IMG/VR virus record: IMGVR_UViG_3300028430_000454
DNA: 40,254 bases
Strand: one strand, 5' to 3'
Origin: a virus
Position 1 is the stretch's first letter, and the number at the start of each line of letters is the position of its first letter. Under the pieces are notes generated by a model, which ran no database searches, was not told the DNA's origin, and saw only the letters and a list, made by a program, of their open reading frames with translations. This document shows, one piece after another, positions 1,715 through 40,254 of the stretch. The position numbers and the translations under genes are program-made.

Positions 1715-3145
1715 TTATAGCTCCACAGCCATGGTGACCTGACCGCTGGTGATATTGGCACTGCCGCCACCAGAAAAAGTGCCCACGAACTGTAGGGTCG
1801 CACTCACAGGGGTCGTGTACTGTACAGTGGGAGTGCCAAGATTGTTAAAGTTAAAAACCGCCCCAGCAAGGTCAACTGTGGGAGAAGCGCGCATCGGAGT
1901 ATCAAAGTGAACTGTATTCCACACACCGTTGCCGAGGCCGACTTGACCCGCCCAAGAGAACGCATTTGTTTCTGCGTTAGCAGCTCGGTATATGCGGAAA
2001 TAACGACGCACCCGCGCGAAACCGGCTTGATACGGCACCCACTCAAAAGGAGTACAAACGGTACCTTTTTCAACTTGAAGTTGAGCTATGTCTATTGTGG
2101 CATTAAGCGTACTAATGAGTTGAGTACCACCAAGGGCGCCAATAATATTTCCTGCAGCCCATGCCCCACTAACAGCTAGACTATTGCTACCAGCGCCACA
2201 GTTAAAATGAATTAGCATTCCACGCTGATTGTCCTGCGGCCATGTTCCTGTAGTATCGCCAGGAATGTTAGGAATTGTTACGTATTGCCAAACATTGGCA
2301 GCAAGGTATTGAAAAGAAAATGGATATCCCCTACTGGCGGCTGGATTCTTTACTGCTCCGGAATGAGGTCCTACGAGAGAGGATCGAAACCAAAAGCTAA
2401 TAGAAATTGGTTGAGCATCAGGTGTACCAAACGCTAGATCTGCAACATCTAGTCCCTCAATAAGAGCTGTGTAGATGTATTGATCAGTCGGAGCAAGCGT
2501 TCCATCTGCTGTGGTAGCTTGGATACGCACAAAGTTTTGTCTGCCGTTTACTGGTCCGCCTGTTGCAACAGACGAGATTGTTAATGCACCCGGAGCAGCG
2601 GCAGCAAAACAATCAGTGCAGTCATGCGTACGAACACCACTGCCAGGACTAGTATTTACTGCTGCGCCATTGTTCCGCTGGTCGAACTGGAACGCCCCGT
2701 TGGCGAAACGGTTCTTGTTGACGATAGTGGCCCCGAGAACAGTGCGGGCAGCGGGCGCATCGACTGCGTCTAGAAGAGTCTGCCCGTAGGCCGTGGTCGT
2801 TGCCACAGCTTCCCACGCAGACCCATTCCAAATGTCCATTGCACCGACATTGAACCTGTACTGTGTAATTCCTGACAAAGAAAGTCCGACACTGCTACTA
2901 CCGATGCGATACAGGCCAGTGGTAGACTCAGCAGAAAATGAAAGCGCCGGGGCTACTGCCGTACCATCGATTAGTCGCAGGGGAGCAGTCATGCCCCCGG
3001 CCCCGCTGCGGCTGAGGCTGTCCGTTAAAGCAGCGGCGACGTCTGTGAGTGTACTATTTGCCCACGTAACCGTGATAGTCGTAGCTGCCACCACCGGGTT
3101 GACTACCGGGGGCAGTGTGTAGTTTCCGTTGATATCGCGTGACAT
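1715..3145 (-). CDS. tail fibre / receptor-binding protein
   Basis: 476 aa. The N-terminal ~100 aa (LTDSLSRSGAGGMTAPLRLIDGTAVAPALSFSAESTTGLYRIG) is the conserved phage tail-fibre anchor motif. The C-terminal part is unrelated and visibly AT-richer. It sits after the internal virion genes. Confidence 0.7.
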   Translation of the reverse strand: MSRDINGNYTLPPVVNPVVAATTITVTWANSTLTDVAAALTDSLSRSGAGGMTAPLRLIDGTAVAPALSFSAESTTGLYRIGSSSVGLSLSGITQYRFNVGAMDIWNGSAWEAVATTTAYGQTLLDAVDAPAARTVLGATIVNKNRFANGAFQFDQRNNGAAVNTSPGSGVRTHDCTDCFAAAAPGALTISSVATGGPVNGRQNFVRIQATTADGTLAPTDQYIYTALIEGLDVADLAFGTPDAQPISISFWFRSSLVGPHSGAVKNPAASRGYPFSFQYLAANVWQYVTIPNIPGDTTGTWPQDNQRGMLIHFNCGAGSNSLAVSGAWAAGNIIGALGGTQLISTLNATIDIAQLQVEKGTVCTPFEWVPYQAGFARVRRYFRIYRAANAETNAFSWAGQVGLGNGVWNTVHFDTPMRASPTVDLAGAVFNFNNLGTPTVQYTTPVSATLQFVGTFSGGGSANITSGQVTMAVEL

Positions 3146-4821
3146 TATTCTTCTCCCGGAGACGCTGCTGCGCCCGCCCCATACAGATAAGGGCCTGCTC
3201 TGCGCAGGGCTTCAGCGAGGTCTTTTTGACTTTGGTTTTGGCCCATGAGGAAACGCGCACCCCTGACGGTCTGACCGATGGCAGATGTTCCGTATAGTCC
3301 GGCGAGAATAGGGGCGATGATAGGATTACTTGTCGCCACACCGATACCCCCGACTCCGAGCGGGGCCAAAATTCGCATGGTGGTGTTGACATCTCCACGT
3401 CCTGCTGCTGCATGCGTGGGACCGAGTACTCGCTGGGCGGGGCCAACCAACTCGTCTACTGTGTTCACACCTGCCATCGGGTCAGCACGCCCATACGCAG
3501 TCTTCAACCGATCTATTCCCACGCCCACATTCTCACCGGCAGCGTCCTTCGCCGCCGTTTTCATGCGACTGAGGTCGTAGTTCAGGCGATCGATGTCCTT
3601 GACCCGCATAAGTTGCTCGGGGGTGATGCGCCCATACACGTGATTTTTGAAGACGTCGCGGGCACGATCTATCGCGGCGACTACTCCTGGATCGTTGGTG
3701 CGTGCCGCTTTGCGCTTGAGCTCCGTCAATATTTCTTTTTGAATTTCTTTTTGCGTCATCCGTGTGCCACGGGCAGACAGCTTGGTCGCGTCTATGGTGT
3801 CTGCGATGATTGCTGCTGCTTCCCCCGCCGCCTTCGCCCCACCGCCGAGCCTGCCGGTTTGGGAGGCTGCCGCAGAGGCCCGCCCCACCAACGACTGTGT
3901 GATGGGAAACTTCTGTCCCTGGAACACGTCGTCGTATGCGCGGCTGACGTAGTCTTGAGCGGACTCGAGTAGTTCGTTTCCAGTGCCTCCGGGAATGTCT
4001 CTGTTGCCTTCGGTGATCTTTCGGAACAGAGACTCACCGAGTTCTTCGTTTTGTCGCTGCAAAACTCGCCGCGACCCCGCAGCCAGCGAACCAATCGACT
4101 TGCCGATGCGTCTTTCGGCTCCCTGAGATAGTGTAGGAGTTATCCCAGCCTCCATAAGCTTCACCGCGTCAGGGCTGGGGGTGAACATCCTGGTCGTGGC
4201 CTTGCGCAGGACCGTGCCGACGCCCTGCATGCCCGCGCCGAGCGCAGCATCGATCGCAGCCTGTCTGCCCTTCTCTGCGAAGCGTGCTTCTGCACCTTCC
4301 GCCTCGCTAGGGGTCAGCGCGAAGCCGGTAGCCCCGCTGACGCCCGCTGCAGAGCCTACGGTTGCCAGCGTGCGTGCCGCCCGGCCCGCACCAGCGGCCT
4401 TCGCAAGCACACTACCCGCCTTCGCACCGGGGACGGCAGTCATTGCGATGTTGCCTGCGACTTCTCCGGCCCCACGGCCGAACGCGCCCATGCCAGACTC
4501 GCGTTCGCTCTCTTGCCGTATCTGCTCGAGCACGCCTTTGTTTTCCGGAGACAAGTCGGTGAACAAGCTCTTGATGCCGAGCGCAGCCTTGATGGCCGAG
4601 TCTCCCAGACCAGACACGACCGACCCTGACCCCGGCACCGCAGCACCCAGCCCCCGCTGCAATACACCCGCCCGCTCTGAGGCCTGTAGAGGCGCGGGAG
4701 CCGCCGCAGCGGGTTGGGTGGTGCTACCCCCTTGCCCCGTGGCTTGCGTGGCCTCCAGACGCGCCTGAGCCCTTGCCAGCGCCTCGGCCCGTGCAATCGC
4801 GCTTTGCTGTTCTGGGGTCAC
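3145..4821 (-). CDS. internal virion / ejection protein (large, Ala/Gly-rich, hydrophobic segments)
   Basis: 558 aa, start overlapping the upstream stop. It has Gly/Ala-rich hydrophobic stretches near the middle and C-terminus. Its position corresponds to T7 gp15/16-type proteins. No lytic transglycosylase motif seen. Confidence 0.5.
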   Translation of the reverse strand: MTPEQQSAIARAEALARAQARLEATQATGQGGSTTQPAAAAPAPLQASERAGVLQRGLGAAVPGSGSVVSGLGDSAIKAALGIKSLFTDLSPENKGVLEQIRQESERESGMGAFGRGAGEVAGNIAMTAVPGAKAGSVLAKAAGAGRAARTLATVGSAAGVSGATGFALTPSEAEGAEARFAEKGRQAAIDAALGAGMQGVGTVLRKATTRMFTPSPDAVKLMEAGITPTLSQGAERRIGKSIGSLAAGSRRVLQRQNEELGESLFRKITEGNRDIPGGTGNELLESAQDYVSRAYDDVFQGQKFPITQSLVGRASAAASQTGRLGGGAKAAGEAAAIIADTIDATKLSARGTRMTQKEIQKEILTELKRKAARTNDPGVVAAIDRARDVFKNHVYGRITPEQLMRVKDIDRLNYDLSRMKTAAKDAAGENVGVGIDRLKTAYGRADPMAGVNTVDELVGPAQRVLGPTHAAAGRGDVNTTMRILAPLGVGGIGVATSNPIIAPILAGLYGTSAIGQTVRGARFLMGQNQSQKDLAEALRRAGPYLYGAGAAASPGEE

Positions 4822-11633: not shown

Positions 11634-12605
11634 TCAGGCGGTGGCGGACAGACGGCCCTGGAATTGGGCACCGCTGCTCGTCATGTTGCCTGCGAACGCG
11701 AGGATCTGCACTTCCGCGTCCTGGTTGATGGAGTACCGCTTGTTCGGCGACAGCGGAACCATGTTCCGCTTGCTGTGCGGACGGAAGTGAACATACTTCG
11801 TGTTGAGGAAGTAACAGGTGCGGGCACCGGCAAACCCGCCGATACCACCGTCCAGCACCACGTCGGCGTCCATGAACTGCACGACCTTGAACCCGAGGTT
11901 GGCCTTGGACGGCTCCGTGAAGCGCTGCTGGGGCTGAAGGCTCCCCATGTACTGCGTCCACCAGAGGCTGTCCATGACGATCAGGTCCGGACGATCCATG
12001 CCGCGCAGGGTGCTCGCCCACATGGCATTCATGGCGGGCTGCACCGTGGTGGTGGTGACCGACGCGATGTTGGACCGCTGGCTGCGCCAGAACGGCCACG
12101 CCGCACGATCGATGCCGCCGTAGGTGCCGGTGGTGGGCGTGACCGGAACTGCGAGGTCGAGGCCGATCAGTTGCTTGCCTCCCGCACCCGTGCCATCGCT
12201 GTAGATGGATTGCGCGATGAGGTTCGCCATCGACGATTCGGCGACCTTCATGCGGCTTTCCATCAGGTCGATCATCTGCTCGGGGCCGCTGTTGCGCAGT
12301 TGATCCAGGCCGGAGATGATGACGGGCACCGCTGCCTGCCGGATGTCGAACGCAGCCGCCGAGATGACGTCCTGCGCAGCCACCGGAAGCATGTCGTAAC
12401 CCGAATACCAGCCTGCATTCGAGTTTTCGGCGAACGAGAGTTCTTCGAAAATTTGCGTACCCCCCGAGAACTCACGGATGCCGCCGCGACCTTTGAGGTA
12501 GGTCAGCAGCCCGTTGTTCTTGGTGACGTTGTCTTGGATCTTTTTCGATCGTTTTTCGATCGTGGTCGCGATGATGTCGCTGACCGATGCGTTTGCGAAT
12601 GCCAT
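11634..12605 (-). CDS. major capsid protein
   Basis: 323 aa, directly after the scaffold gene. The N-terminal pattern (ATTIEKRSKKIQDNVTKNNGLLTYLKGRGGI..FSGG..I.E.LSF..N....WYSGYD) resembles podovirus HK97-fold capsid proteins. Confidence 0.8.
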   Translation of the reverse strand: MAFANASVSDIIATTIEKRSKKIQDNVTKNNGLLTYLKGRGGIREFSGGTQIFEELSFAENSNAGWYSGYDMLPVAAQDVISAAAFDIRQAAVPVIISGLDQLRNSGPEQMIDLMESRMKVAESSMANLIAQSIYSDGTGAGGKQLIGLDLAVPVTPTTGTYGGIDRAAWPFWRSQRSNIASVTTTTVQPAMNAMWASTLRGMDRPDLIVMDSLWWTQYMGSLQPQQRFTEPSKANLGFKVVQFMDADVVLDGGIGGFAGARTCYFLNTKYVHFRPHSKRNMVPLSPNKRYSINQDAEVQILAFAGNMTSSGAQFQGRLSATA

Positions 12606-12631
12606 GTAGGCCTCCGGGTAGTTTCAGAAGG

Positions 12632-13786
12632 TTAGCTGCGTGACGCCATCTTGCGAATGGATGACCGAAGGTCTGATCGCAAATCGCCCGACTGTTCGTC
12701 GTCTTCATCATCGCCGACCGGTGCCCCCGAATTGGCAGAGCTGACCGATGCGGCCTTTTTCGCCCGGATGGCCGCTTCGGAAAGCGGTTCCTGTACTGGC
12801 TTGCGAGTCTCCAAGACTTTGGAGATCTCAGGATGCAGCATAGTAGCACGCCGGTACGCTTCTTGCAAGCTCATTTGCTGTCCACGTTTGGCGGCAAGGT
12901 CCAGGATGTCGGCCATGTCGTCTTTGACATCCCACGCGAATTCATTTGCGGGATCGTTCAAGAACTGTTCACTGGCAGTGGTCAGTTCTTGCACCTTGGC
13001 TTGTTCGCCCTGTTGCATGCGCTCTTGCAGCGACTGGACGAATTGCATGGTGGGGGCGAACCTCTGTTCGATCGCGCTGAGTATGGCCGGATCGAAGTTG
13101 GACTGTCGCCCCTGCGCGTTCTGCGGGTAGACCGTCCCGTCCATTTGCCCCGAGGCCAGAACGTCGTCCAGGGCATTGATGTCAACCCCGTAAGTCTTGA
13201 TGATGTTGGCGACGACGTTCGCTTTTTGCTGAGTATTCCCCCGGCGCAGCCACCCCGCCGTATTCAGCAAACTCTCCACGGCTTTCATCGGTGTGGAGTT
13301 TTCTGCTTGAATGTCGTGCATGTACGGCTGCACGGTGCGGGTAAATTCTCCGTGGAAATTACGCGCCTCGGCGGTTTGCGCCAGCGTCTGCGTGATCTCT
13401 CGCTCCCGCCGCATGACTTCTTGCTGCACCAACAGAGGAACTTTGGCCCACTCTTCTCGCGCTGCGGGCGTCCACGACACCGGAGGCCTTGCCCCCTGCG
13501 GCTGCTCAGCGGGTTGCGCCTGCTCTACCGGTTTTTCGACTGCAGGCTGTTCCGCGACTTGTTTCGGCTCCGCAACCGGAGAAACCCTGTCTTCAGGATT
13601 TGCGGGAGTTCTGGGGGCAAACCGTCCTTGGTCGTCACGCGCTCGAGCGTCGGACTGCTCCTGAGAAAAGCTGGTATCTTCGTTAACGGCACTTGTGCTC
13701 TCCGGTTCAGGCGCAGCAGTTTCGACCTCCTGCATTGCTGCACGCAGGTCATCGGCCATGCTGCTTTCTTCATCCAACGGGGGCAT
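12632..13786 (-). CDS. scaffolding protein
   Basis: 384 aa, acidic, Gln/Glu/Ala-rich and predicted helical. AGGAG lies 7 nt upstream of the ATG at 13786. It sits immediately upstream of the capsid gene. Confidence 0.7.
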   Translation of the reverse strand: MPPLDEESSMADDLRAAMQEVETAAPEPESTSAVNEDTSFSQEQSDARARDDQGRFAPRTPANPEDRVSPVAEPKQVAEQPAVEKPVEQAQPAEQPQGARPPVSWTPAAREEWAKVPLLVQQEVMRREREITQTLAQTAEARNFHGEFTRTVQPYMHDIQAENSTPMKAVESLLNTAGWLRRGNTQQKANVVANIIKTYGVDINALDDVLASGQMDGTVYPQNAQGRQSNFDPAILSAIEQRFAPTMQFVQSLQERMQQGEQAKVQELTTASEQFLNDPANEFAWDVKDDMADILDLAAKRGQQMSLQEAYRRATMLHPEISKVLETRKPVQEPLSEAAIRAKKAASVSSANSGAPVGDDEDDEQSGDLRSDLRSSIRKMASRS

Positions 13787-22271: not shown

Positions 22272-22535
22272 TCGACTGTCCGAATTTGGAGCATCGACGA
22301 ATCGAGGTCGAACTCGATGTCGTCGAGCTCGACCTCAGATCCGAAGAACCAACCATCTCGAGGTCGAGCACGACTTCGGAGCTTCCCGAATCGAACTCAC
22401 CGTCGACTTCGGAGCTTCAGGGGTCGAATTGACGCGCGACTTTGGAACTTTGCGGTTCGAACTCGCGTTCGAGCTCCGATTTGGAGCTCTGAGCATCGAA
22501 TACGGAGCTCGAAGAGTCAAATTGACGCTCAGAAT
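22272..22535. repeat. degenerate 33-bp tandem repeat array (about 8 units)
   Basis: In-phase units at 22371, 22404 and 22437 begin CGACTT(C/T)GGA(G/A)CTT and contain TCGAA(C/T)T. Flanking units at 22272, 22305, 22338, 22470 and 22503 are more diverged. Sub-motifs: GA(A/C)TT(T/C)GGAGC, TCGAGCTC and GTC(G/A)AATTGACGC. Confidence 0.85.
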
Positions 22536-34271: not shown

Positions 34272-35213
34272 GTGAACATCTTCTACCTAGATCACGACCC
34301 TGCACTTGCTGCCATGTATCAACATGACAAGCATGTAGTCAAAATGTGTCTGGAAACTGCGCAAATACTTTGTGCAGTTCAACACCGCTACGGACGCAAT
34401 GCCCCCTACAAGCCGACGCATCAGAACCATCCGTGCGTGCTGTGGGCAGGCGACCACGTCAAGCACTACGATTGGTTGGTGCGGCACGGAGAATACCTGT
34501 GCCTGGAGTACACCACGCGATTTCGTAAAAGGCACGCATGCGCGAACGTAATCGATAAGGTGCGCTATGCGCCCCCCGAGATGTACGAGCGCGTGCGGCG
34601 ACAGACAATGCCTCCGCAGTGCATGCCCGATGAATACAAGGTTCCGGGCCAGACTGTGCTAGCATACCGCAATTACTACCTCGGCGCGAAGGTAGCCAAC
34701 CAGAACTGGACGAACCGCGCACGTCCAAACTTTCTCATTCAAGGAGAAGCAAAAATGGCAAAGAAGAAAGCAGCCCCGGCAACCGAAACCGTCGCCGAAG
34801 GTACCACGGAAGAGACTGTACTGGACGCAGGTTCGCACCCGGCACCCACCGAGCCGGTGGCGCGCACCCGTGGCCCCCGTGGCGTGCCGGAAACCGCCGT
34901 GATCACCGTGCTGGCCGACAAAAACCCGAAGCGCGTCGGCTCCAAAGCCTTCGATCTCTGGGAGAAATACAGTAACGGCATGACCGTGGCGCAGTACGTG
35001 GACGCTACGGGCAAGGACGCCACCCCGGCGCTCGTGTACGACGCGGCCCACGGCTTCATCAGCATCGAGGGGTACACCCCCGGCCAGATCATCACCCCCA
35101 AGGTGCGCGAGCCGAAGGCCCCCAAGGAGCCGAAGGCGAAAAAGCCCAAGGCGGTGAAAGAGGCCGAGGCCGAGGTGGACGCAGATCTGGCGGCGACCGA
35201 AGAAGAGGCCTGA
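34272..35213 (+). CDS. two-part protein: conserved N-terminal domain (possible EndoV/pyrimidine-dimer-glycosylase-like) + Lys/Ala/Pro-tailed winged-helix-like C-terminal domain
   Basis: 313 aa with a GTG start. The N-terminal motif is MNIFYLDHDP..DKHVVKM..ETAQIL..YKPTHQNHPC. An in-frame internal ATG at 34755 has a perfect AAGGAG (34741-34746) 8 nt upstream. The glycosylase-like call is memory only and unverified. Confidence 0.55.
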   Translation: MNIFYLDHDPALAAMYQHDKHVVKMCLETAQILCAVQHRYGRNAPYKPTHQNHPCVLWAGDHVKHYDWLVRHGEYLCLEYTTRFRKRHACANVIDKVRYAPPEMYERVRRQTMPPQCMPDEYKVPGQTVLAYRNYYLGAKVANQNWTNRARPNFLIQGEAKMAKKKAAPATETVAEGTTEETVLDAGSHPAPTEPVARTRGPRGVPETAVITVLADKNPKRVGSKAFDLWEKYSNGMTVAQYVDATGKDATPALVYDAAHGFISIEGYTPGQIITPKVREPKAPKEPKAKKPKAVKEAEAEVDADLAATEEEA

Positions 35214-35276: not shown

Positions 35277-35909
35277 ATGATTACGACGTACAAGGGATAC
35301 ATCGTACGAGAAGGAACGCTTGACAGCTACGTGGTTGACGAGCTGAGAACTTACCGAATGCTGACCCTGTACCCGCACGACATCGTTCTTGATGTAGGCG
35401 GCAACATCGGCAGTTTCGCGAAATACGCCGCCGGGATCTGCCATAGCGTAGTGTCCGTGGAGCCGTCCCCAGACAACTTTGCTCTTCTGGAAATCAACTC
35501 CCCCCGCAGCCTGAACATCAATGCTGCGGTTGTCGGTGACAACATGACGCAGAATGTTTTTCTCTACGAAAACCGGGGGAAAAACAAGGGACTGCACAGT
35601 ACCGTTCCCACGCGGGGGCGAGATGTAGTGACCGTGCCCGCTGTCGAATTCGCCAAATTGCTGCACGACTATACACCAACCAAGTTGAAGGTAGACTGCG
35701 AGGGGGCAGAGTATAGTTTCGTGGTGCCGGGGGAATTGCCAGAGTCCGTCAAGGCAGTGGCTATCGAGTACAACCTGACCAGAAAACATGAGCGCGGCGC
35801 GGCTTCTGCCATGCACCAGAAATTTCTAGAGTCAGGGTTCGCGTGCTTAAAGTTCCCCACCCTGCACACGAAGGCGTGGGCAACTCTCTCTTTCTACGAA
35901 AGGGCGTAG
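35277..35909 (+). CDS. FkbM-family SAM-dependent methyltransferase
   Basis: 210 aa. Motifs: DIVLDVGGNIGSFAKYAA (SAM motif I), VVSVEPSPDNFALLEIN and KLKVDCEGAEYSF, typical of FkbM/Methyltransf_21. Confidence 0.75.
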   Translation: MITTYKGYIVREGTLDSYVVDELRTYRMLTLYPHDIVLDVGGNIGSFAKYAAGICHSVVSVEPSPDNFALLEINSPRSLNINAAVVGDNMTQNVFLYENRGKNKGLHSTVPTRGRDVVTVPAVEFAKLLHDYTPTKLKVDCEGAEYSFVVPGELPESVKAVAIEYNLTRKHERGAASAMHQKFLESGFACLKFPTLHTKAWATLSFYERA

Positions 35910-35912
35910 GCA

Positions 35913-36725
35913 ATGCAAATCTTCATCCCCACCTACGGTCGCTCGGGGGAGCAGGCTACGCTGAGTAACCTGCTCCCGACGGGCCGTAAGGTGACGTTAG
36001 TCGTGCAAGAACGAGAAGCATCGAAGTATCTAGCGCACAGTGTGTTAGAGTCCGTGAGTGTGCAAGTGCTGCCCCCGGAAATACAGACCATCAGCGCAAC
36101 ACGGGATTACATCCTCAAGCACGCAACGGATGACTCAATCCTCATGCTTGACGATGACCTCGACTTTGCGGTGCGCCGCACAGACGATCCAACTCGATTC
36201 CGCAGCCCTGAGACTGAAGACATCAAGCGCATGCTCAACGAAGTTGAAGAGCTGCTGACCACCAGCCCATTCGTCAGCATAGGGGCGAGGGAGGGCGGCA
36301 ATCGCAATGTGGAGCCGTACCTGTACAACACACGAATGATGCGTGCCTTGGGCTACCGGCGCGACTATCTCAACGCGTGGAAAATCACGTTTGCCCCCAT
36401 GGAACTCATGGAAGACTTCCACGTTGCCCTACAAATCATGCTGGTTGGGGGCACCTGTGTCGTGGCGAACAAGTGGGTCACCAACCAACGTTCCGGCAGT
36501 GGGGCGAAAGGCGGGTGCTCCAGCTACCGCACGCTCGAGATGCATGGGGACGCTGCCCGTCAACTTGCCGCGCTGTACCCTGAATATGTTACTGTGGTAC
36601 ACAAGCAAACGAAAACGGCGTGGGGCGGGCAACCACGGCTTGATGTGCGAGTAGCATGGAAAAAGGCCGCAGCGGCCGGAAAGGCTAGTCGTGAAAAAAG
36701 AAGAACTGGCGTACTGGATCAATGA
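35913..36725 (+). CDS. GT-A-like DxD glycosyltransferase (TET/JBP-associated-GT-like candidate)
   Basis: 270 aa. The N-terminal Rossmann start MQIFIPTYGR and the motif ILMLDDDLDF (DxD) fit a GT-A fold. The specific family is not verified. Confidence 0.5.
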   Translation: MQIFIPTYGRSGEQATLSNLLPTGRKVTLVVQEREASKYLAHSVLESVSVQVLPPEIQTISATRDYILKHATDDSILMLDDDLDFAVRRTDDPTRFRSPETEDIKRMLNEVEELLTTSPFVSIGAREGGNRNVEPYLYNTRMMRALGYRRDYLNAWKITFAPMELMEDFHVALQIMLVGGTCVVANKWVTNQRSGSGAKGGCSSYRTLEMHGDAARQLAALYPEYVTVVHKQTKTAWGGQPRLDVRVAWKKAAAAGKASREKRRTGVLDQ

Positions 36726-37500
36726 GCGGTACAGCATCATGAAGAAAAAGACTGCGGGGCAGGTGCCCCCGTGGACCGCTGACCCGAACATGGCGGGGGT
36801 GCGCTGGTGCAACGTCCACCGCGAGGATGATGCTGTTACCGTGTGGATGGCGCGCGAGTGGCGCTGCGCGAAGATGCCCATGTGGTGGATCGTCCTGGGG
36901 CGCATGCTCAATTACATCCCCACACTCAACGAAGTGGTGAGTGCGCAGGTGCCGAAGACATACCCCGACCTATCCACCATCGGGGGTATCTTGAAGGCCC
37001 GTCGTGAGCGGGGCGACAAGGTGTTCACCAGCGCATACACGATCTCCACCTGCGGCAAGAAGATGGACAAGATCGATTACGTGATGGAGGTCGTGCAGGC
37101 ATTCATGGAGGCCGGGGAGCCTGACTACAGCAGCCTCGCTGAGTGCTACAAGCAAATCACGTGCGTTGACGGGTTTGGGAGCTTTTTGGCTGGGCAGGTG
37201 CTGGCTGACTGCAAAAACACCCCCGGCCACCCGCTCCAGAGCGCTCCAGACTGGCACACGTGGTGCAGCCCCGGCCCCGGTAGCCTGCGGGGGCTTTCAG
37301 CGCTCTACGGCGTTCCCATTACGCCCAAGGGGTTTCAAGCCGCCATCAGCATGGCATGGGAGGCCACCGCCCCCCTCATCAACGAAGACATTCCCCCCAT
37401 ACACATGCAAGATTTCCAGAACTGCCTGTGTGAGTTTTCCAAATACATGAGGGTCAAGTATGGAGATCGAAGGGTCAGGAATACATACCATCCAGGGTGA
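36691..37500 (+). CDS. aGPT-Pplase-like protein (alpha-glutamyl/putrescinyl-thymine pyrophosphorylase family candidate)
   Basis: 269 aa with a GTG start overlapping the upstream gene by 35 nt. The N-terminal pattern WINERYSI..K..GQVPPWTADPNMAGVRWCNVHREDDAVTVW matches the remembered family signature (ER..I...K..G.P.PWT.DPIL...RF.NV.RE.D..T.W). Confidence 0.5.
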   Translation: MKKEELAYWINERYSIMKKKTAGQVPPWTADPNMAGVRWCNVHREDDAVTVWMAREWRCAKMPMWWIVLGRMLNYIPTLNEVVSAQVPKTYPDLSTIGGILKARRERGDKVFTSAYTISTCGKKMDKIDYVMEVVQAFMEAGEPDYSSLAECYKQITCVDGFGSFLAGQVLADCKNTPGHPLQSAPDWHTWCSPGPGSLRGLSALYGVPITPKGFQAAISMAWEATAPLINEDIPPIHMQDFQNCLCEFSKYMRVKYGDRRVRNTYHPG

Positions 37501-37663
37501 CCTGATTGTGGGCGAGGAAGTCCACGGGTGTGCGATCAACTGCACGGTGGTGCCGTACAGTGACATGCAGGACGGGTGGTTCATGGTTCAGTTTCTCACC
37601 CGACAACAAATGGAAGGCTACGCCCGTGAACATAGCCTCCTCATAAAGGAGCAGAAAGAGTGA
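37460..37663 (+). CDS. hypothetical small protein
   Basis: 67-aa track ORF. It overlaps the upstream gene by 41 nt, and its stop overlaps the next GTG start (GTGA). Confidence 0.3.
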   Translation: MEIEGSGIHTIQGDLIVGEEVHGCAINCTVVPYSDMQDGWFMVQFLTRQQMEGYAREHSLLIKEQKE

Positions 37664-38667
37664 CGATGCAAGTAAGCGGCAGAAATGTGAATGATGTTTT
37701 CACCGACGCCATCTGGTTCATGCGCACTCTCGGCCCTGAGTGCCACGAGCAGTCCAGAAACGGCCCCGTGCTGGTGGCACCGGGGCCGGTCGTCTCCAAA
37801 TACCTGTGCCCGTGGGAGCGCGTACTCTTCGACACCCGCAGGGACGCCAACCCCACTTTCCACTTGATGGAAGCTATCTGGATGTTGGCGGGAGAAAACA
37901 GGGTGGACTGGCTGGAACAGTTCAACTCTAACATTGGCAGGTACGCCAATGATGGAATCATCAACGGAGCCTACGGGCACCGCTGGCGCTCGCATTTCGA
38001 TGACGTGGACCAAATCAGCTACGTGGTGAACACACTGCGCAACGATGCCTCGTCGCGCCGCGCCGTCATCAACATGTGGGATCCCGTACAAGACAGGGCG
38101 CTAGAGTGGAACGACGTGCCCTGCAACACCACGATCTACTTCGACCTCAGGGGCGGCAAACTCAACATGACCGTCTGTTGTCGCAGCAATGACGCGATCT
38201 GGGGATGCTACGGAGCCAACGTAGTTCATTTCAGTGTGCTGCAGGAGTATGTGGCTGCGTTTCTTCGAGCACCGATGGGGGTGTACCTTCAGTTCAGCAA
38301 CAACTTCCACATCTACACAGACTTGACTCTGTGGCAAGATTACCGGGTGATGCCCCCTATTTTCGCCCCCCGGTACCGCACGGCAGCGGCCAAAGACCAA
38401 TGGAGTAGCCCCTTCGTTTTCCCGCTGGTGGAGCACGGAGACCGTCCCATGGAATTCAAGGAAGACTGTTTCCGGCTGCTGGAGGGCGTGAAGTGCAAGA
38501 GCCCATTCATGCAACGGGTCGCTGAGCCGATGAAGAATGCATACCTCGCCCGTAAGGCAGGGGACACCAAGGGTGTGGCCGATGCGCTGACCAGCATGGC
38601 GAATTGCGACTGGTACTACGCACTCACCGACTGGATCAAGAGGAGAGACAATGCCCAAAGCGAATGA
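37660..38667 (+). CDS. thymidylate-synthase-family enzyme (pyrimidine hydroxymethylase candidate)
   Basis: 335 aa. AAGGAG (37646-37651) lies 8 nt before GTG 37660; ATG 37666 is an alternative start. Motifs: RRDANPTFHLMEAIWMLAGEN, GAYGHRWR, SRRAVINMWDP, the catalytic-Cys context DVPCNTTIYF, and CCRSNDAIWGCYGAN. Confidence 0.8.
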   Translation: MTMQVSGRNVNDVFTDAIWFMRTLGPECHEQSRNGPVLVAPGPVVSKYLCPWERVLFDTRRDANPTFHLMEAIWMLAGENRVDWLEQFNSNIGRYANDGIINGAYGHRWRSHFDDVDQISYVVNTLRNDASSRRAVINMWDPVQDRALEWNDVPCNTTIYFDLRGGKLNMTVCCRSNDAIWGCYGANVVHFSVLQEYVAAFLRAPMGVYLQFSNNFHIYTDLTLWQDYRVMPPIFAPRYRTAAAKDQWSSPFVFPLVEHGDRPMEFKEDCFRLLEGVKCKSPFMQRVAEPMKNAYLARKAGDTKGVADALTSMANCDWYYALTDWIKRRDNAQSE

Positions 38668-38920
38668 TCATCAGGTAGCGGGCGACCACTACAAGACTGA
38701 CCACACTGTGCAACACTGGGACGTGGTCGACTTGTTCAATCTCGACTATTTCCAGGGACAAATCACCAAGTACGTGTTCCGCTGGAAGTACAAACACGAC
38801 ACTCCTAAGAAGCGTCTCGACGACTTGAAGAAGGCGCGGCACTTTCTCGACAAGTACATCGAGATACAGGAGCGTGACGACGCAGAAGAGGCTGGCCCCA
38901 GCTACGTGAATCAAGGATAG
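38651..38920 (+). CDS. DUF3310-family protein
   Basis: 89 aa. QVAGDHYK...NLDYFQGQITKYVFRWKYKH...DDLKKARHFLDKYIE fits the DUF3310 pattern. Confidence 0.65.
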   Translation: MPKANDHQVAGDHYKTDHTVQHWDVVDLFNLDYFQGQITKYVFRWKYKHDTPKKRLDDLKKARHFLDKYIEIQERDDAEEAGPSYVNQG

Positions 38921-40003: not shown

Positions 40004-40242
40004 CCGAGCCGATCAAGCAACCTGAAGCCCTGCGGCTGGCTGATGCGCTTGGGCTGTACTACACACACCTCACAGCGGTGCCTGACATCAACCGTGAAGC
40101 CGCCGCCGAACTGCGCCGGTTGCATGCCGAGAACGAGAGGCTGCGGGCATTGCTTACCCGTTACCGCAACGAGACGCCGCTCGGCCATCAGCCGCACATG
40201 GTCGCGCACGAAGTGGACGCCGCACTGAAGGAGACGAAATGA
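40000..40242 (+). CDS. hypothetical coiled-coil protein
   Basis: ATG at 40000 overlaps the upstream TGA (ATGA), inside track ORF 39910..40242. 80 aa, starting MTEPIK. The last 43 nt lie in the contig-end repeat. Confidence 0.5.
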   Translation: MTEPIKQPEALRLADALGLYYTHLTAVPDINREAAAELRRLHAENERLRALLTRYRNETPLGHQPHMVAHEVDAALKETK

Positions 40243-40254
40243 GCGATACGCCGA
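40200..40254. repeat. contig-end direct repeat, copy 2
   Basis: Identical to nt 1-55. Confidence 0.95.

Follow-up and report, generated by a model that had tools for sequence, protein, structure and literature searches.

The aGPT-Pplase clades, like the TAGT glycosyltransferases, are said to have been defined by Iyer et al. in 2013. Clade 2 consists of amino-acid/diamine:DNA transferases, which need 5-PmdU (PMC8989533, PMC11472151, PMC13458397) and a metal-binding Glu-Thr pair situated four and three residues before the catalytic Cys (PMC11472151, PMC13458397). In PaMx11 gp46, a clade-2 protein, W146 serves as the clamp on the flipped base and K150 as the binding residue for glycine; treated with borohydride, the clade-2 intermediate yields thymidine. 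Clade 1 is carried by all four of the classic T-hypermodifying phages, in whose DNA 5hmU gives rise to T. The enzyme of this 5hmU-to-T conversion was stated in 2018 not to be known (PMC5889632); for PhiW-14 and SP10 the route to T is reported to pass via a (pyro)phosphorylated base. The clade-1 protein of M6, gp55, could be omitted when hypermodification was reconstituted in vitro, and was dispensable there.

A second precedent is glycosylation. In the T-even glucosyltransferase systems, the TET/JBP-associated TAGT pathways and trypanosome base J, a hydroxymethyl-pyrimidine is made first and is then O-glycosylated in DNA; the TAGT family includes, by annotation, the T6-type beta-glucosyl-HMC alpha-glucosyltransferase, and Pyle et al. 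have catalogued associations of GT-A glycosyltransferases with ThyS homologues in metaviromes. The locus described here is predicted to follow the same order of events. It differs in that its 5hmU would be made before replication, by a thymidylate-synthase (TS) homologue, whereas the known systems start from 5hmC or a dioxygenase product, and in that known 5hmC and 5hmU glycosylation systems work without a clade-1 aGPT-Pplase as a near-obligatory third member.

A clade-1 gene between a glycosyltransferase and a thymidylate-synthase homologue

The window, which is the whole stretch of viral DNA analysed (40,254 nucleotides; IMG/VR record IMGVR_UViG_3300028430_000454), is a complete phage genome of about 40.2 kb: bases 1-55 are repeated exactly at 40200-40254, which justifies speaking of the absence of a kinase from "the genome". 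Searched at the nucleotide level, the INPHARED phages contained no match to the island; this phage type is absent from INPHARED at the DNA level. The features of the island are collected in the table.

Table. Features of the modification island, in order along the window.
Feature	Coordinates	Strand	Basis
T4-endonuclease-V-like (PF03013) DNA-binding/glycosylase-like protein, 313 aa	34272..35213	+	PF03013 E 2.7e-7, phrog_624 E 1e-51
FkbM-family methyltransferase	35277..35909	+	PF05050 E 4e-11, TIGR01444 E 8e-17
TAGT-family (GT-A) DNA glycosyltransferase, 270 aa	35913..36725	+	PF20691 E 9.6e-20, phrog_842 E 1.4e-48
Clade-1 aGPT-Pplase family protein (Pfam PF18723 "HMUDK_hel"), 269 aa	36691..37500	+	Pfam, PHROG, AF2, BFVD
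Helix-hairpin-helix-like loop G161-F-G-S-F165-L-A-G-Q169	37171..37197	+	alignment to clade-2 GFGPWIGFK
Putative active-site motif Q240-D-F-Q-N-C-L-C247-E248-F-S-K251	37408..37443	+	invariance and alignment to clade 2
67-aa ORF, overlapping the genes on both sides	37460..37663	+	no family match; homologues in 12/80 loci
Thymidylate-synthase homologue, predicted dUMP hydroxymethylase, 335 aa	37660..38667	+	PF00303, phrog_5131 E 1e-94
DUF3310 protein, 89 aa, downstream of TS homologue	38651..38920	+	PF11753 E 5.6e-4 (below cutoff)

The central ORF begins with GTG, with GGAAAGG six nucleotides upstream of this start. Its product matches PF18723 with an E of 4.1e-34 (118.7 bits, for a cutoff of 25) over residues 6-257 and model positions 7-276 of 281, that is, over the full length, and phrog_2396 with an E of 1e-41; apart from PF18723 no Pfam model was found at E 0.01. 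The profile search proposed as a check in an earlier note, which from the letters of the DNA had called the gene aGPT-Pplase-like, thus gave a strong match. The AF2 model is all-alpha (pLDDT 92.3) and resembles the BFVD models of clade-1 proteins of phiRSL1, PhiW-14, Lucky3 and SP10, with TM scores of 0.75-0.81 and E of 4e-10 to 4e-7. Homologues number 808, counted as matching protein clusters, and 493 IMG/VR stretches encode a relative; the closest named ones are M6 gp55, PhiW-14 gp72 and ViI gp160. With these three, as with Pam3 gp50 and Microbacterium phage Lucky3 gp54, the protein shares PF18723, the predicted fold and the invariant residues, although it is only about 25-31% identical to clade-1 proteins of the M6 type. 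By its sequence, then, it is a clade-1 aGPT-Pplase, a paralogue and not an orthologue of the characterised kinase-dependent amino-acid:DNA transferases.

The present Pfam name calls for care. PF18723 was formerly named aGPT-Pplase1, and GenBank applies the old and new names to the same M6-like orthologues. In Bacillus phage SP10, gp186 (637 aa, "5-hmdU DNA kinase") has a clade-1 domain as its C-terminal half, with a TM of 0.75 to the window model (PMC5889632, Table 3); there the domain is fused to a P-loop kinase, whereas the window protein is the domain alone. We infer that a fusion of the SP10 type explains "HMUDK_hel". The label cannot be read as "kinase", for what it denotes is the helical partner domain, and the 269-aa protein has neither a Walker A motif nor a match to PF18748 (5-HMUDK).

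Searches of PDB chains by sequence and by profile found nothing significant. Foldseek against the PDB returned weak glycosylase matches, the best being MutY, Tm1821, AlkA and ROS1 (E at least 0.42, TM about 0.3), and did not retrieve the crystal structure of PaMx11 gp46. The protein might on this basis be a DNA-glycosylase-like enzyme that removes U, T or damaged bases so that substitution becomes uniform, or a shield protecting 5hmU-DNA from host glycosylases or restriction; weak fold matches to the HhH glycosylases MutY, AlkA, Tm1821, ROS1 and endonuclease III, the glycosylase-fold prediction by Phyre2 cited by Lee et al. 2018 and the association of an endoV-like protein with the module all lean that way. 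We regard it as quite improbable, since the matches are not significant (E of 0.4 or more, TM near 0.3), the clade-2 structure from YuA reportedly represents a separate fold, and the invariant Cys-Glu pair described below fits attack on C6 as in clade 2 and not the Asp/Lys chemistry of HhH glycosylases.

The clade-1 gene is the middle member of a trio, TAGT glycosyltransferase, clade 1 and TS homologue, which is conserved whether it is approached from clade 1 or from TAGT. Among 80 IMG/VR loci anchored on clade 1 the TS homologue follows in 79, and the gene directly upstream is a TAGT in 70, a kinase of the 5-HMUDK type in 3 and another candidate glycosyltransferase in 4, two loci being cut. 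Anchoring on TAGT instead (80 loci) finds clade 1 and TS in 77 of the 79 informative ones, and not one kinase. Metagenomic contigs show the same set, without kinase and without clade 2, and the contexts obtained from the scans of viral contigs were consistent to the point of saturation. Since three genomes or loci (MW202897.1, L149 and L160) have TAGT and TS alone, clade 1 is not indispensable. That the gene belongs to clade 1 and that the trio forms a conserved module we hold, taken together, with high confidence.

The members flanking clade 1 carry the residues expected of their families. The TAGT gene overlaps the clade-1 start by 35 nt at its stop end; its product scores 71.8 bits with PF20691 (cutoff 27.5), and its acidic DxD-type motif, D80-D81-D82, is invariant among 15 diverse homologues. 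The TS homologue has, at E. coli ThyA positions, C at C146, D at L143, N at N177 and D at D169, the same four residues as M6 gp58, to which it is 39% identical; all of 79 relatives share C146, D143 and D169, and 78 have N177. A dUMP hydroxymethylase is recognised by Cys146, by Asn177, which denotes uracil, and by an acidic residue rather than Leu at 143, which denotes a hydroxymethyl product, while Asp at 169 marks the protein as not being a 5-hydroxy-dCMP synthase (PMC13326640). These signature residues predict that the TS homologue is a dUMP hydroxymethylase; on N177 and D169 we reject the idea that it makes 5hmC or 5-hydroxy-C. M6, Pam3 and RHph_TM26 likewise have their clade-1 gene shortly before the one for dUMP hydroxymethylase.

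Of the other neighbours, homologues of the endonuclease-V-like protein occur within 10 kb in 55 of the 80 loci, making it a frequent companion of the module; the DUF3310 protein, which lacks a P-loop, is present in 74, and on related contigs the 67-aa ORF has been annotated as a gene. Outside the close relatives of the window, the FkbM gene was found in just one locus (L064); it is a lineage-specific addition, possibly for O-methylation of a sugar. Another locus, L035, includes the sugar-related genes PfkB and SIS. Such sugar-tailoring and nucleotide-sugar genes in relatives suggest that the sugar is retained in DNA and is not a leaving group.

The same kinase-less set is found in a cultured phage of alphaproteobacteria, PhiJL001: endoV-like gp18 directly upstream of clade-1 gp19, TAGT gp22, TS homologue gp24 and DUF3310, with no 5-HMUDK kinase and no clade 2 in the whole genome. 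PhiJL001 is an M6-related siphovirus of 63.6 kb, whereas the window represents a phage type of about 40 kb; its gene order differs in that clade 1 comes before TAGT, from which two small ORFs separate it, and its proteins are distant from those of the window (clade 1, phmmer E 7e-22; TAGT, 35% identity by tblastn).

The search for a kinase

The phages of the M6 type differ from the window above all in encoding a P-loop 5-hmdU DNA kinase, which immediately precedes clade 1 in M6, Pam3 and Lucky3 and in RHph_TM26 is separated from it by a single small ORF; a clade-2 transferase is likewise present in most of these phages. The window has neither, and a TAGT gene stands upstream instead. Every cultured clade-1 member compared, PhiJL001 excepted, co-occurs with a kinase, and the window does not. 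This co-occurrence is an association and not a defining property of the family, and the clade-1 membership of the window protein stands.

A six-frame Walker-A scan of the genome returned terL (AHRRAGKT), the primase-helicase (GPPGTGKN), the SNF2 helicase (GLGKT) and AERRIGKS, which sits in a 558-aa tail-module ORF without family match (3145-4821, minus strand) and is treated as a chance match. The earlier note had listed the first three as the only ones; these are confirmed, and the fourth is to be added. An HMM built from seven 5-HMUDK kinases and run unfiltered against all 819 six-frame segments of the window scored no better than E 0.25, at the level of noise. On the scan and the HMM together, the claimed absence of a P-loop 5-hmdU DNA kinase is borne out: there is none in any frame. 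The three kinase-bearing IMG/VR relatives score E 1e-83 to 1e-86 with this HMM, though as they sat in its seed set their scores show only that there is no further match in the 80 loci. A local clade-2 HMM likewise found no match in any frame of the window.

Individual ORFs fared no better as hidden kinases. PHROG matches labelled "nucleotide kinase" for the DUF3310 protein involve only non-kinase C-terminal parts, and the protein is an 89-aa domain of the DUF3310 type. The endonuclease-V-like ORF, which had been named as a place where a kinase fold might turn up, is modelled by AF2 as a helical T4-endoV-like domain and a domain of about 70 aa, two ordered domains with disordered basic segments; the model contains no kinase fold, and a fold search was null. 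The other ORF so named encodes only 67 aa.

These results bear on the idea of a canonical group transferase with 5-PmdU as its substrate, the phosphate coming from a kinase of the host or from a hidden phage kinase without a P-loop. Membership of the aGPT-Pplase family would accord with this, and several ORFs of the window, being without a family match, could harbour such an enzyme. Yet the protein belongs to clade 1 and not to clade 2, it lacks the metal ligands by which clade 2 holds its phosphorylated substrate, no kinase is found in the frames of the window, in PhiJL001 or among the 80 TAGT-anchored loci, and the endonuclease-V-like ORF models without a kinase fold. We know of no cellular 5hmU-DNA kinase, and the suggestion that a host enzyme is used found no support. 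We consider a canonical transferase of this kind very improbable.

The premise from which a missing kinase had been deduced, that characterised members of the family act on 5-hmdU already phosphorylated by a dedicated kinase, is correct for clade 2, which uses 5-PmdU, and need not extend to a clade-1 gene. Since the need for a kinase belongs to clade 2, the paradox of a missing partner is not supported. The glycosyltransferase fills the genomic slot, and on the pathway proposed below also the functional one, held in M6-type phages by the kinase (and clade-2 transferase); no kinase would then be missing, because none would be expected in a pathway of the glycosyltransferase type.

Conserved residues and the putative active site

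The family-wide pattern R-x-x-N-V-x-R-x-x-D, A-Y, G-x-G-x-F, GPG, D...C-E..K is present in full in the window protein, as N41, R44, D47, A115, Y116, G163, F165, G195-G197, D241, C247, E248 and K251, residues that it has in common with the clade-1 members of M6, TM26, Pam3, Lucky3, W14 and ViI. D241, C247, E248 and K251 are invariant in all clade-1 proteins compared, kinase-linked or glycosyltransferase-linked, as are F165, GPG195-197 and N41/R44/D47, and G163 and F165 are universal within the clade. Glycosyltransferase (GT)-linked proteins and their nearest kinase-linked relatives differ in strongly conserved columns only at E45 and N176; the GT-linked members have N176 and a loop (177-180) two residues longer beside the HhH-like motif. 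This near-identity suggests that clade-1 proteins perform the same chemistry whether their partner is a kinase or a glycosyltransferase.

Clade 2 (M6 gp51, ViI gp247, PhiW-14 gp109, PaMx11 gp46, PDB 8z2m, YuA, PDB 25qc, and the SH-Ab 15599 DADT) is of the same superfamily by definition, and the clade-1 model shows moderate fold similarity to the clade-2 AADT proteins, with TM scores of 0.42-0.55. The two clades appear to have in common a GFG-aromatic loop and a C-terminal L-C motif, which in clade 2 contains the catalytic Cys. C247 aligns with this Cys (C247 also in PaMx11 gp46) both in MAFFT and in hhalign; the hhalign comparison with a three-sequence clade-2 alignment is not significant (E 0.16) and was used for motif register only. 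In the same non-significant alignment, the loop residues W146 and K150 of PaMx11 gp46 correspond to F165 and Q169. The mapping of the active site rests on these two short motifs and on the definition of the aGPT-Pplase family. Differences from clade 2 are plain: the window protein has no clade-2 HMM match, the glycine-binding Lys is replaced by Gln, and the metal ligands E243/T244 are replaced by Q243/N244, a pair kept by 98% or more of the 58 GT-linked clade-1 sequences in the comparison; at the level of the locus there is no kinase to provide 5-PmdU, and no PLP, rSAM or FAD amino-acid tailoring genes lie nearby. From the alignments and the invariance, we lean slightly towards the protein being an enzyme with a catalytic Cys.

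What else could such conservation mean? The clade-1 protein could be a non-catalytic accessory subunit, or one confined to base flipping, which recognises 5hmU in DNA and offers it to the transferase encoded next to it or sets the sequence context, its partner being the kinase in M6-type phages and the glycosyltransferase here. Almost every locus does have one of these two partners, kinase or glycosyltransferase, immediately upstream, in many cases with its stop codon overlapping the next start; the linkage is close whether clade 1 or TAGT is the anchor (70/80 and 77/79), SP10 gp186 joins an N-terminal kinase to a C-terminal clade-1 domain, and hypermodification in vivo is sequence-specific. 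Against it, kinase and clade 2 suffice in vitro without gp55, TAGT and TS exist without clade 1, and about 17 polar residues, among them the Cys-Glu pair that aligns with the clade-2 nucleophile, do not vary even between very distant members, which exceeds the usual demands of binding. TAGT-family and T4-type glycosyltransferases, moreover, reportedly act on DNA unaided (the work of Burke in 2021 and Pyle in 2024 is said to bear on this). A purely accessory role therefore appears unlikely.

The TAGT protein could alternatively be the activating enzyme, its O-glycoside taking the place of phosphate as the leaving group and being displaced by a nucleophile or hydride through the clade-1 enzyme. 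The earlier note had raised this in proposing activation by the DxD protein, and part of the proposal stands: the TAGT gene occupies the exact slot of the kinase in related loci. The Cys/acid pair is conserved, and GT-linked proteins have their specific N176 and longer 177-180 loop by the HhH-like motif. A glycoside is, however, a far poorer leaving group than phosphate, FkbM here and PfkB with SIS in L035 speak for a sugar that is retained in the finished DNA, and the GT-linked and kinase-linked proteins differ at two conserved positions only. We judge activation by glycosylation improbable; of the three options put forward in that note, different chemistry is still the best.

A proposed pathway

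The reading we prefer, tentatively and with rather less than even confidence, is a 5hmU pathway of the glycosylation type, with the clade-1 protein working on 5hmU in DNA and no kinase taking part. The first part of this pathway, the presence of 5hmU in the DNA together with its glycosylation, is likely on the strength of the predicted activities of the flanking genes. The TS homologue would produce 5-hydroxymethyl-dUMP, replication would place 5hmU in phage DNA instead of T, and TAGT would then glycosylate some of the 5hmU residues at their 5-hydroxymethyl group, giving a base-J-like product; in this lineage the sugar might be tailored by the FkbM methyltransferase. The clade-1 enzyme would bind a flipped base of the 5hmU type via F165 and Q243/N244, Cys247 would attack C6 and E248 would serve as acid/base, the covalent strategy being that of clade 2 minus the metal/phosphate site. 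In the most speculative step, 5hmU not kept by the transferase would be processed via an exocyclic-methylene intermediate, for which thymine would be the most plausible product; clade 1 would then carry out the 5hmU-to-T step that PhiW-14 and SP10 are known to have.

A role for clade 1 apart from group transfer is indicated by the dispensability of gp55, the presence of clade 1 in all four classic phages, the conversion of the clade-2 intermediate to thymidine by borohydride, and the reported normal cutting of PhiJL001 DNA by restriction enzymes. That thymine is the product of its reaction is nevertheless doubtful. No reductant-binding or cofactor-binding site is recognisable in the protein, and the (pyro)phosphorylated base through which T is reported to arise in PhiW-14 and SP10 is not one that the window phage can make; both count against a thymine step. 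The overlapping, tight gene order with the transferase and the kinase fusion of SP10 fit an accessory subunit equally well. In its most extended form, our preferred pathway would make clade 1 the sought enzyme that turns 5hmU in phage DNA into thymine, or resolves it otherwise, by covalent catalysis through Cys and C6, without a kinase and beside a glycosyltransferase, the mature genome combining thymine with base-J-like glycosylated 5hmU in a sequence-patterned mosaic; this we advance as a long shot.

Whatever clade 1 does, the trio is a stripped-down natural system consisting of a hydroxymethylase, one transferase and clade 1, free of kinase, clade-2 paralogue and amino-acid tailoring enzymes. 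Because it is widespread and minimal, and is represented by the cultured PhiJL001, a direct test of clade-1 function would need no more than three or four recombinant proteins. On the strength of the trio, many phages of about 40 kb, forming a large group, are predicted to have DNA with glycosylated 5hmU made by a pre-replicative route; in some of their lineages the sugar may be methylated or swapped for another. This would be relevant to evasion of restriction by phages, to sequencing artefacts in viromes and to enzyme tools for labelling 5hmU. The arrangement is common to hundreds of uncultured phages, and points to sugar-decorated uracil in their DNA.

Family membership of the clade-1 gene and absence of a kinase

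The product of the GTG-initiated gene that follows the glycosyltransferase matches Pfam PF18723, the clade-1 branch of the aGPT-Pplase family, along its entire length (E 4.1e-34; 118.7 bits against a cutoff of 25), and also phrog_2396 in the PHROG search; it matches no other Pfam family at E 0.01 or better, and a local HMM of the paralogous clade 2 found nothing in any frame of the window. The profile search proposed in the earlier note thus yielded a significant match and bore out the description of the gene as aGPT-Pplase-like. Its nearest annotated relatives, at 25-31% identity, include M6 ORF055 (gp55), PhiW-14 gp72, ViI orf160 and Pam3 gp50 ('aGPT-Pplase1'), hypothetical proteins of SH-Ab 15599 and nACB2, and proteins of phiRSL1 and a Microbacterium phage. 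By sequence it is a clade-1 paralogue alongside M6 gp55, PhiW-14 gp72 and ViI orf160, and truly belongs to a family that is known but lacks functional characterisation; we found no assignment of clade-1 function in the accessible literature. PF18723 is presently labelled 'HMUDK_hel, 5-hmdU DNA kinase, helical domain', and in GenBank the same M6-like orthologues are called both 'aGPT-Pplase1 domain-containing protein' and '5-hmdU DNA kinase helical domain-containing protein'. The renaming after the kinase is likely due to SP10 gp186, in which an N-terminal kinase is fused to a C-terminal PF18723-type domain (Table 3 of PMC5889632) and whose BFVD model, F8WQ30, is matched by the window clade-1 model.

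All aGPT-Pplase enzymology and structures come from clade 2: M6 gp51, PaMx11 gp46 and ViI gp247 are amino-acid:DNA transferases, PhiW-14 gp109 uses putrescine and the SH-Ab 15599 enzyme 1,3-diaminopropane as donor, the substrate is kinase-made 5-phosphomethyl-dU, and in catalysis an essential Cys attacks C6 and a divalent metal is bound by a Glu-Thr pair (PMC8989533, PMC11472151, PMC13458397). Reconstitution of the M6 pathway works without gp55. The earlier note's premise of a missing kinase consequently leans on the wrong paralogue, kinase-dependence being a property of clade 2.

The absence itself is real. A six-frame Walker-A scan reproduced the three matches (terL, primase-helicase, SNF2 helicase) that the earlier note gives as the only ones, and added a fourth, AERRIGKS, probably a chance match. 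An HMM of seven 5-HMUDK (5-hmdU DNA kinase) proteins, run unfiltered against all 819 six-frame segments of the window, gave a best E of 0.25; it gives about 1e-84 for three kinase-bearing relatives, all three being among its seven seeds. The endonuclease-V-like protein, suggested earlier as a possible hidden kinase, is modelled as a helical endoV-like domain, a ~70-residue domain and disordered basic segments, with no match to any kinase in a structural search and none to a PDB fold. Several small or unassigned ORFs could conceivably encode unconventional kinases; that one of these, or a host kinase, supplies the phosphate is very improbable.

Features of the window
Feature	Position	Strand	Remarks
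Leftward block	~1.7-26 kb		tail fibre, amidase, major head protein, portal, large terminase, primase-helicase
Tail-module ORF	3145-4821	-	558 aa; Walker-A-like AERRIGKS; no Pfam or PHROG family
Tandem repeats	22371-22469		33-nt unit, 3 copies, 73% identity to copy one
Rightward block	26-40 kb, running on into 1-1.5 kb		DUF932, family-A DNA polymerase, PD-(D/E)XK nuclease, VRR-NUC, SNF2 helicase, then modification island
T4-endonuclease-V-like protein	34272-35213		PF03013 N-terminal domain, ~70-aa second domain, lysine/alanine-rich disordered segments
FkbM-family methyltransferase	35277-35909		inserted between endoV-like gene and TAGT
TAGT-family GT-A glycosyltransferase	35913-36725		PF20691, phrog_842; upstream of clade-1 gene
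Clade-1 gene	36691-37500	+	GTG start, GGAAAGG 6 nt upstream, 269 aa
67-aa ORF	37460-37663		overlaps clade-1 stop by 41 nt and TS start by 4 nt
Thymidylate-synthase (TS) homologue	37660-38667		downstream of clade-1 gene, 67-aa ORF between
DUF3310-type protein	38651-38920		89 aa; directly 3' of TS homologue; kept in 74/80 loci

Bases 1-55 of the window are identical to 40200-40254, an exact direct repeat of 55 nt that is the signature of assembly overlap, and the window is thus a whole phage genome of ~40.2 kb, circular or completely assembled. A nucleotide search of 50,697 phage records found no relative of its modification island. The 33-nt repeats, which may be iterons or an origin, lie among short ORFs, with the primase-helicase gene on one side and the terminase-bearing end of the structural block on the other.

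The conserved trio and exchange of its upstream partner

The glycosyltransferase has an invariant DDD motif, and its stop codon overlaps the clade-1 start. At the diagnostic positions of PMC13326640 the TS homologue keeps the Cys of C146, carries Asp in place of L143, and retains the Asn of N177 and the Asp of D169. M6 gp58 (39% identical) agrees with it at all four; among relatives the Cys and both Asp residues are found in 79/79 and the Asn in 78/79. This signature is, on these residues, that of a dUMP hydroxymethylase, not of a thymidylate synthase, dCMP hydroxymethylase or 5-hydroxy-dCMP synthase.

Among 808 clade-1 homologues in the protein database, many are on contigs of 37-42 kb, and TAGT, PF18723 and TS genes are consecutive on contigs from several sources. 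In 80 IMG/VR loci anchored on clade 1 (37-57% identity) the TS homologue follows in 79, and the gene directly upstream encodes a TAGT in 70, a 5-HMUDK-type kinase in three, an unannotated protein of ~300 aa in three and a weak GT1-like protein in one; one locus has no candidate and two are cut. Loci anchored on TAGT carry clade 1 and TS in 77 of 79 informative cases, and a kinase in none. The three kinases (L061:3431-4084, with PF18748; L072:2010-2666; L080:1251-1892) occupy the TAGT position on short contigs, and the clade-1 proteins encoded there share 40-43% identity with the window's. Because these proteins fall near the base of the glycosyltransferase-linked group in a rough NJ tree, with other transferase types nested within it, sequence comparison indicates that the upstream partner is swapped and the clade-1/TS pair retained.

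The ~300-aa proteins (L034:9091-10002, L035:8884-10002, L036:4594-5502) have no Pfam match and stand exactly in the TAGT position. L035 also carries a Pfam-confirmed PfkB sugar kinase and SIS isomerase (12299-13754), and L036 a similar PfkB-like ORF, judged from sequence alone; in such relatives these genes may supply a heptose-type nucleotide sugar for a different DNA glycan. The FkbM gene is confined to close relatives of the window and L064, which suggests lineage-specific O-methylation of a DNA-linked sugar; homologues of the endoV-like gene lie near the module in 55/80 loci. Those of the 67-aa ORF, for which a family search found no match, occur in only 12/80; M6 gp57 (37 aa) is similarly placed. 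The DUF3310-type domain is commonly fused to dNMP kinases, and PHROG matches of the protein encoded here cover those C-terminal portions of 'nucleotide kinase' families that have no P-loop.

M6, Pam3 and RHph_TM26 share a core in which a kinase gene is followed by clade 1 and, after one or two small genes, by TS. The cultured phage PhiJL001 has an endoV-like gp18 abutting clade-1 gp19, TAGT gp22 and TS gp24, with neither 5-HMUDK kinase nor clade 2 found in its whole genome. Pyle et al. have catalogued associations of GT-A glycosyltransferases with ThyS homologues in viromes, and 5hmU glycosylation in phages was anticipated (PMC13229309). In accessible literature we did not come across an account of clade 1 as a near-obligatory gene of the module; Iyer et al. 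2013 may contain one.

Conserved residues and candidate active site

The AF2 model of the clade-1 protein is all-alpha (pLDDT 92.3) and resembles predicted clade-1 structures (TM 0.75-0.81) and, more weakly, 'amino acid:DNA transferase' proteins (TM 0.42-0.55, E 3e-3 to 1). In the PDB it finds only marginal HhH glycosylases (MutY, E 0.42); a glycosylase-like or protective role is quite improbable. Across the clade-1 proteins compared, which range from that of a Microbacterium phage to that of PhiW-14 (with ViI in one alignment), nineteen positions are identical throughout: R13, D31, N41, R44, D47, R71, N74, A115, Y116, G163, F165, D173, G195-P196-G197, D241, C247, E248 and K251. MAFFT and hhalign align clade-1 GFGSF-LAGQ with clade-2 GFGPW-IGFK, and clade-1 QDFQNCLCEFSK with clade-2 QEVETVLCKWKS. 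On this alignment we infer that C247 corresponds to the catalytic Cys of PaMx11 gp46, F165 to the Trp clamping the flipped base, Q169 to the glycine-binding Lys and Q243/N244 to the metal-binding Glu/Thr, an equivalence reasoned rather than demonstrated, since profile-profile comparison gave no significant score (E 0.16).

Of the columns conserved in at least 93% of glycosyltransferase-linked proteins, only E45 (Q) and N176 (Y/H) are changed in the nearest kinase-linked proteins, whose loop after the HhH-like motif is also two residues shorter. Which transferase is encoded next door thus seems to make no difference to the active site, and this near-identity hints that the substrate is 5hmU in DNA, common to both contexts, and not a phosphorylated or glycosylated derivative. 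That the glycoside is a leaving group is improbable.

A proposed glycosylation pathway and the possible role of clade 1

The pathway would be a variant of known 5hmU-based hypermodification, with glycosylation in place of phosphorylation and amine transfer. Before replication 5hmU would take the place of T, and its hydroxymethyl group would be glycosylated by the TAGT enzyme; the sugar is possibly modified by the FkbM methyltransferase in the window's lineage, PfkB and SIS sugar-nucleotide genes being present instead in some relatives. No kinase would be expected, because the glycosyltransferase would functionally replace the kinase/clade-2 branch.

To judge by its residues, clade 1 would be an enzyme that uses a Cys to act on C6 of a flipped 5hmU-type base and lacks the metal/phosphate site. 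More speculatively, it may resolve 5hmU not retained as glycoside, plausibly to thymine. Arguing for this step, all phages that end up with both T and hypermodified T in their DNA carry clade 1, and an enzyme stated to be unknown forms their T from 5hmU within the polymer (PMC5889632); the clade-2 methylene intermediate yields thymidine when hydride is supplied; clade 1 is dispensable for group transfer; and PhiJL001 DNA is, by a second-hand statement, normally restrictable. Against it count the lack of a recognisable cofactor site in the clade-1 protein, the reported classical route to T via a (pyro)phosphorylated base, and the occasional loss of clade 1: TAGT and a dUMP-hydroxymethylase homologue occur without it in MW202897.1 (a complete genome of 40.4 kb), in L149 and in L160. 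The overlapping gene order with the transferase and the SP10 kinase/clade-1 fusion would also suit an accessory subunit that presents substrate to the neighbouring transferase, an unlikely role, if one worth keeping in mind.

The three genomes or loci without clade 1 are natural 'knock-outs' that can be compared with trio-bearing phages, and the trio, represented in a cultured phage, is a minimal natural system in which to work out the role of clade 1.
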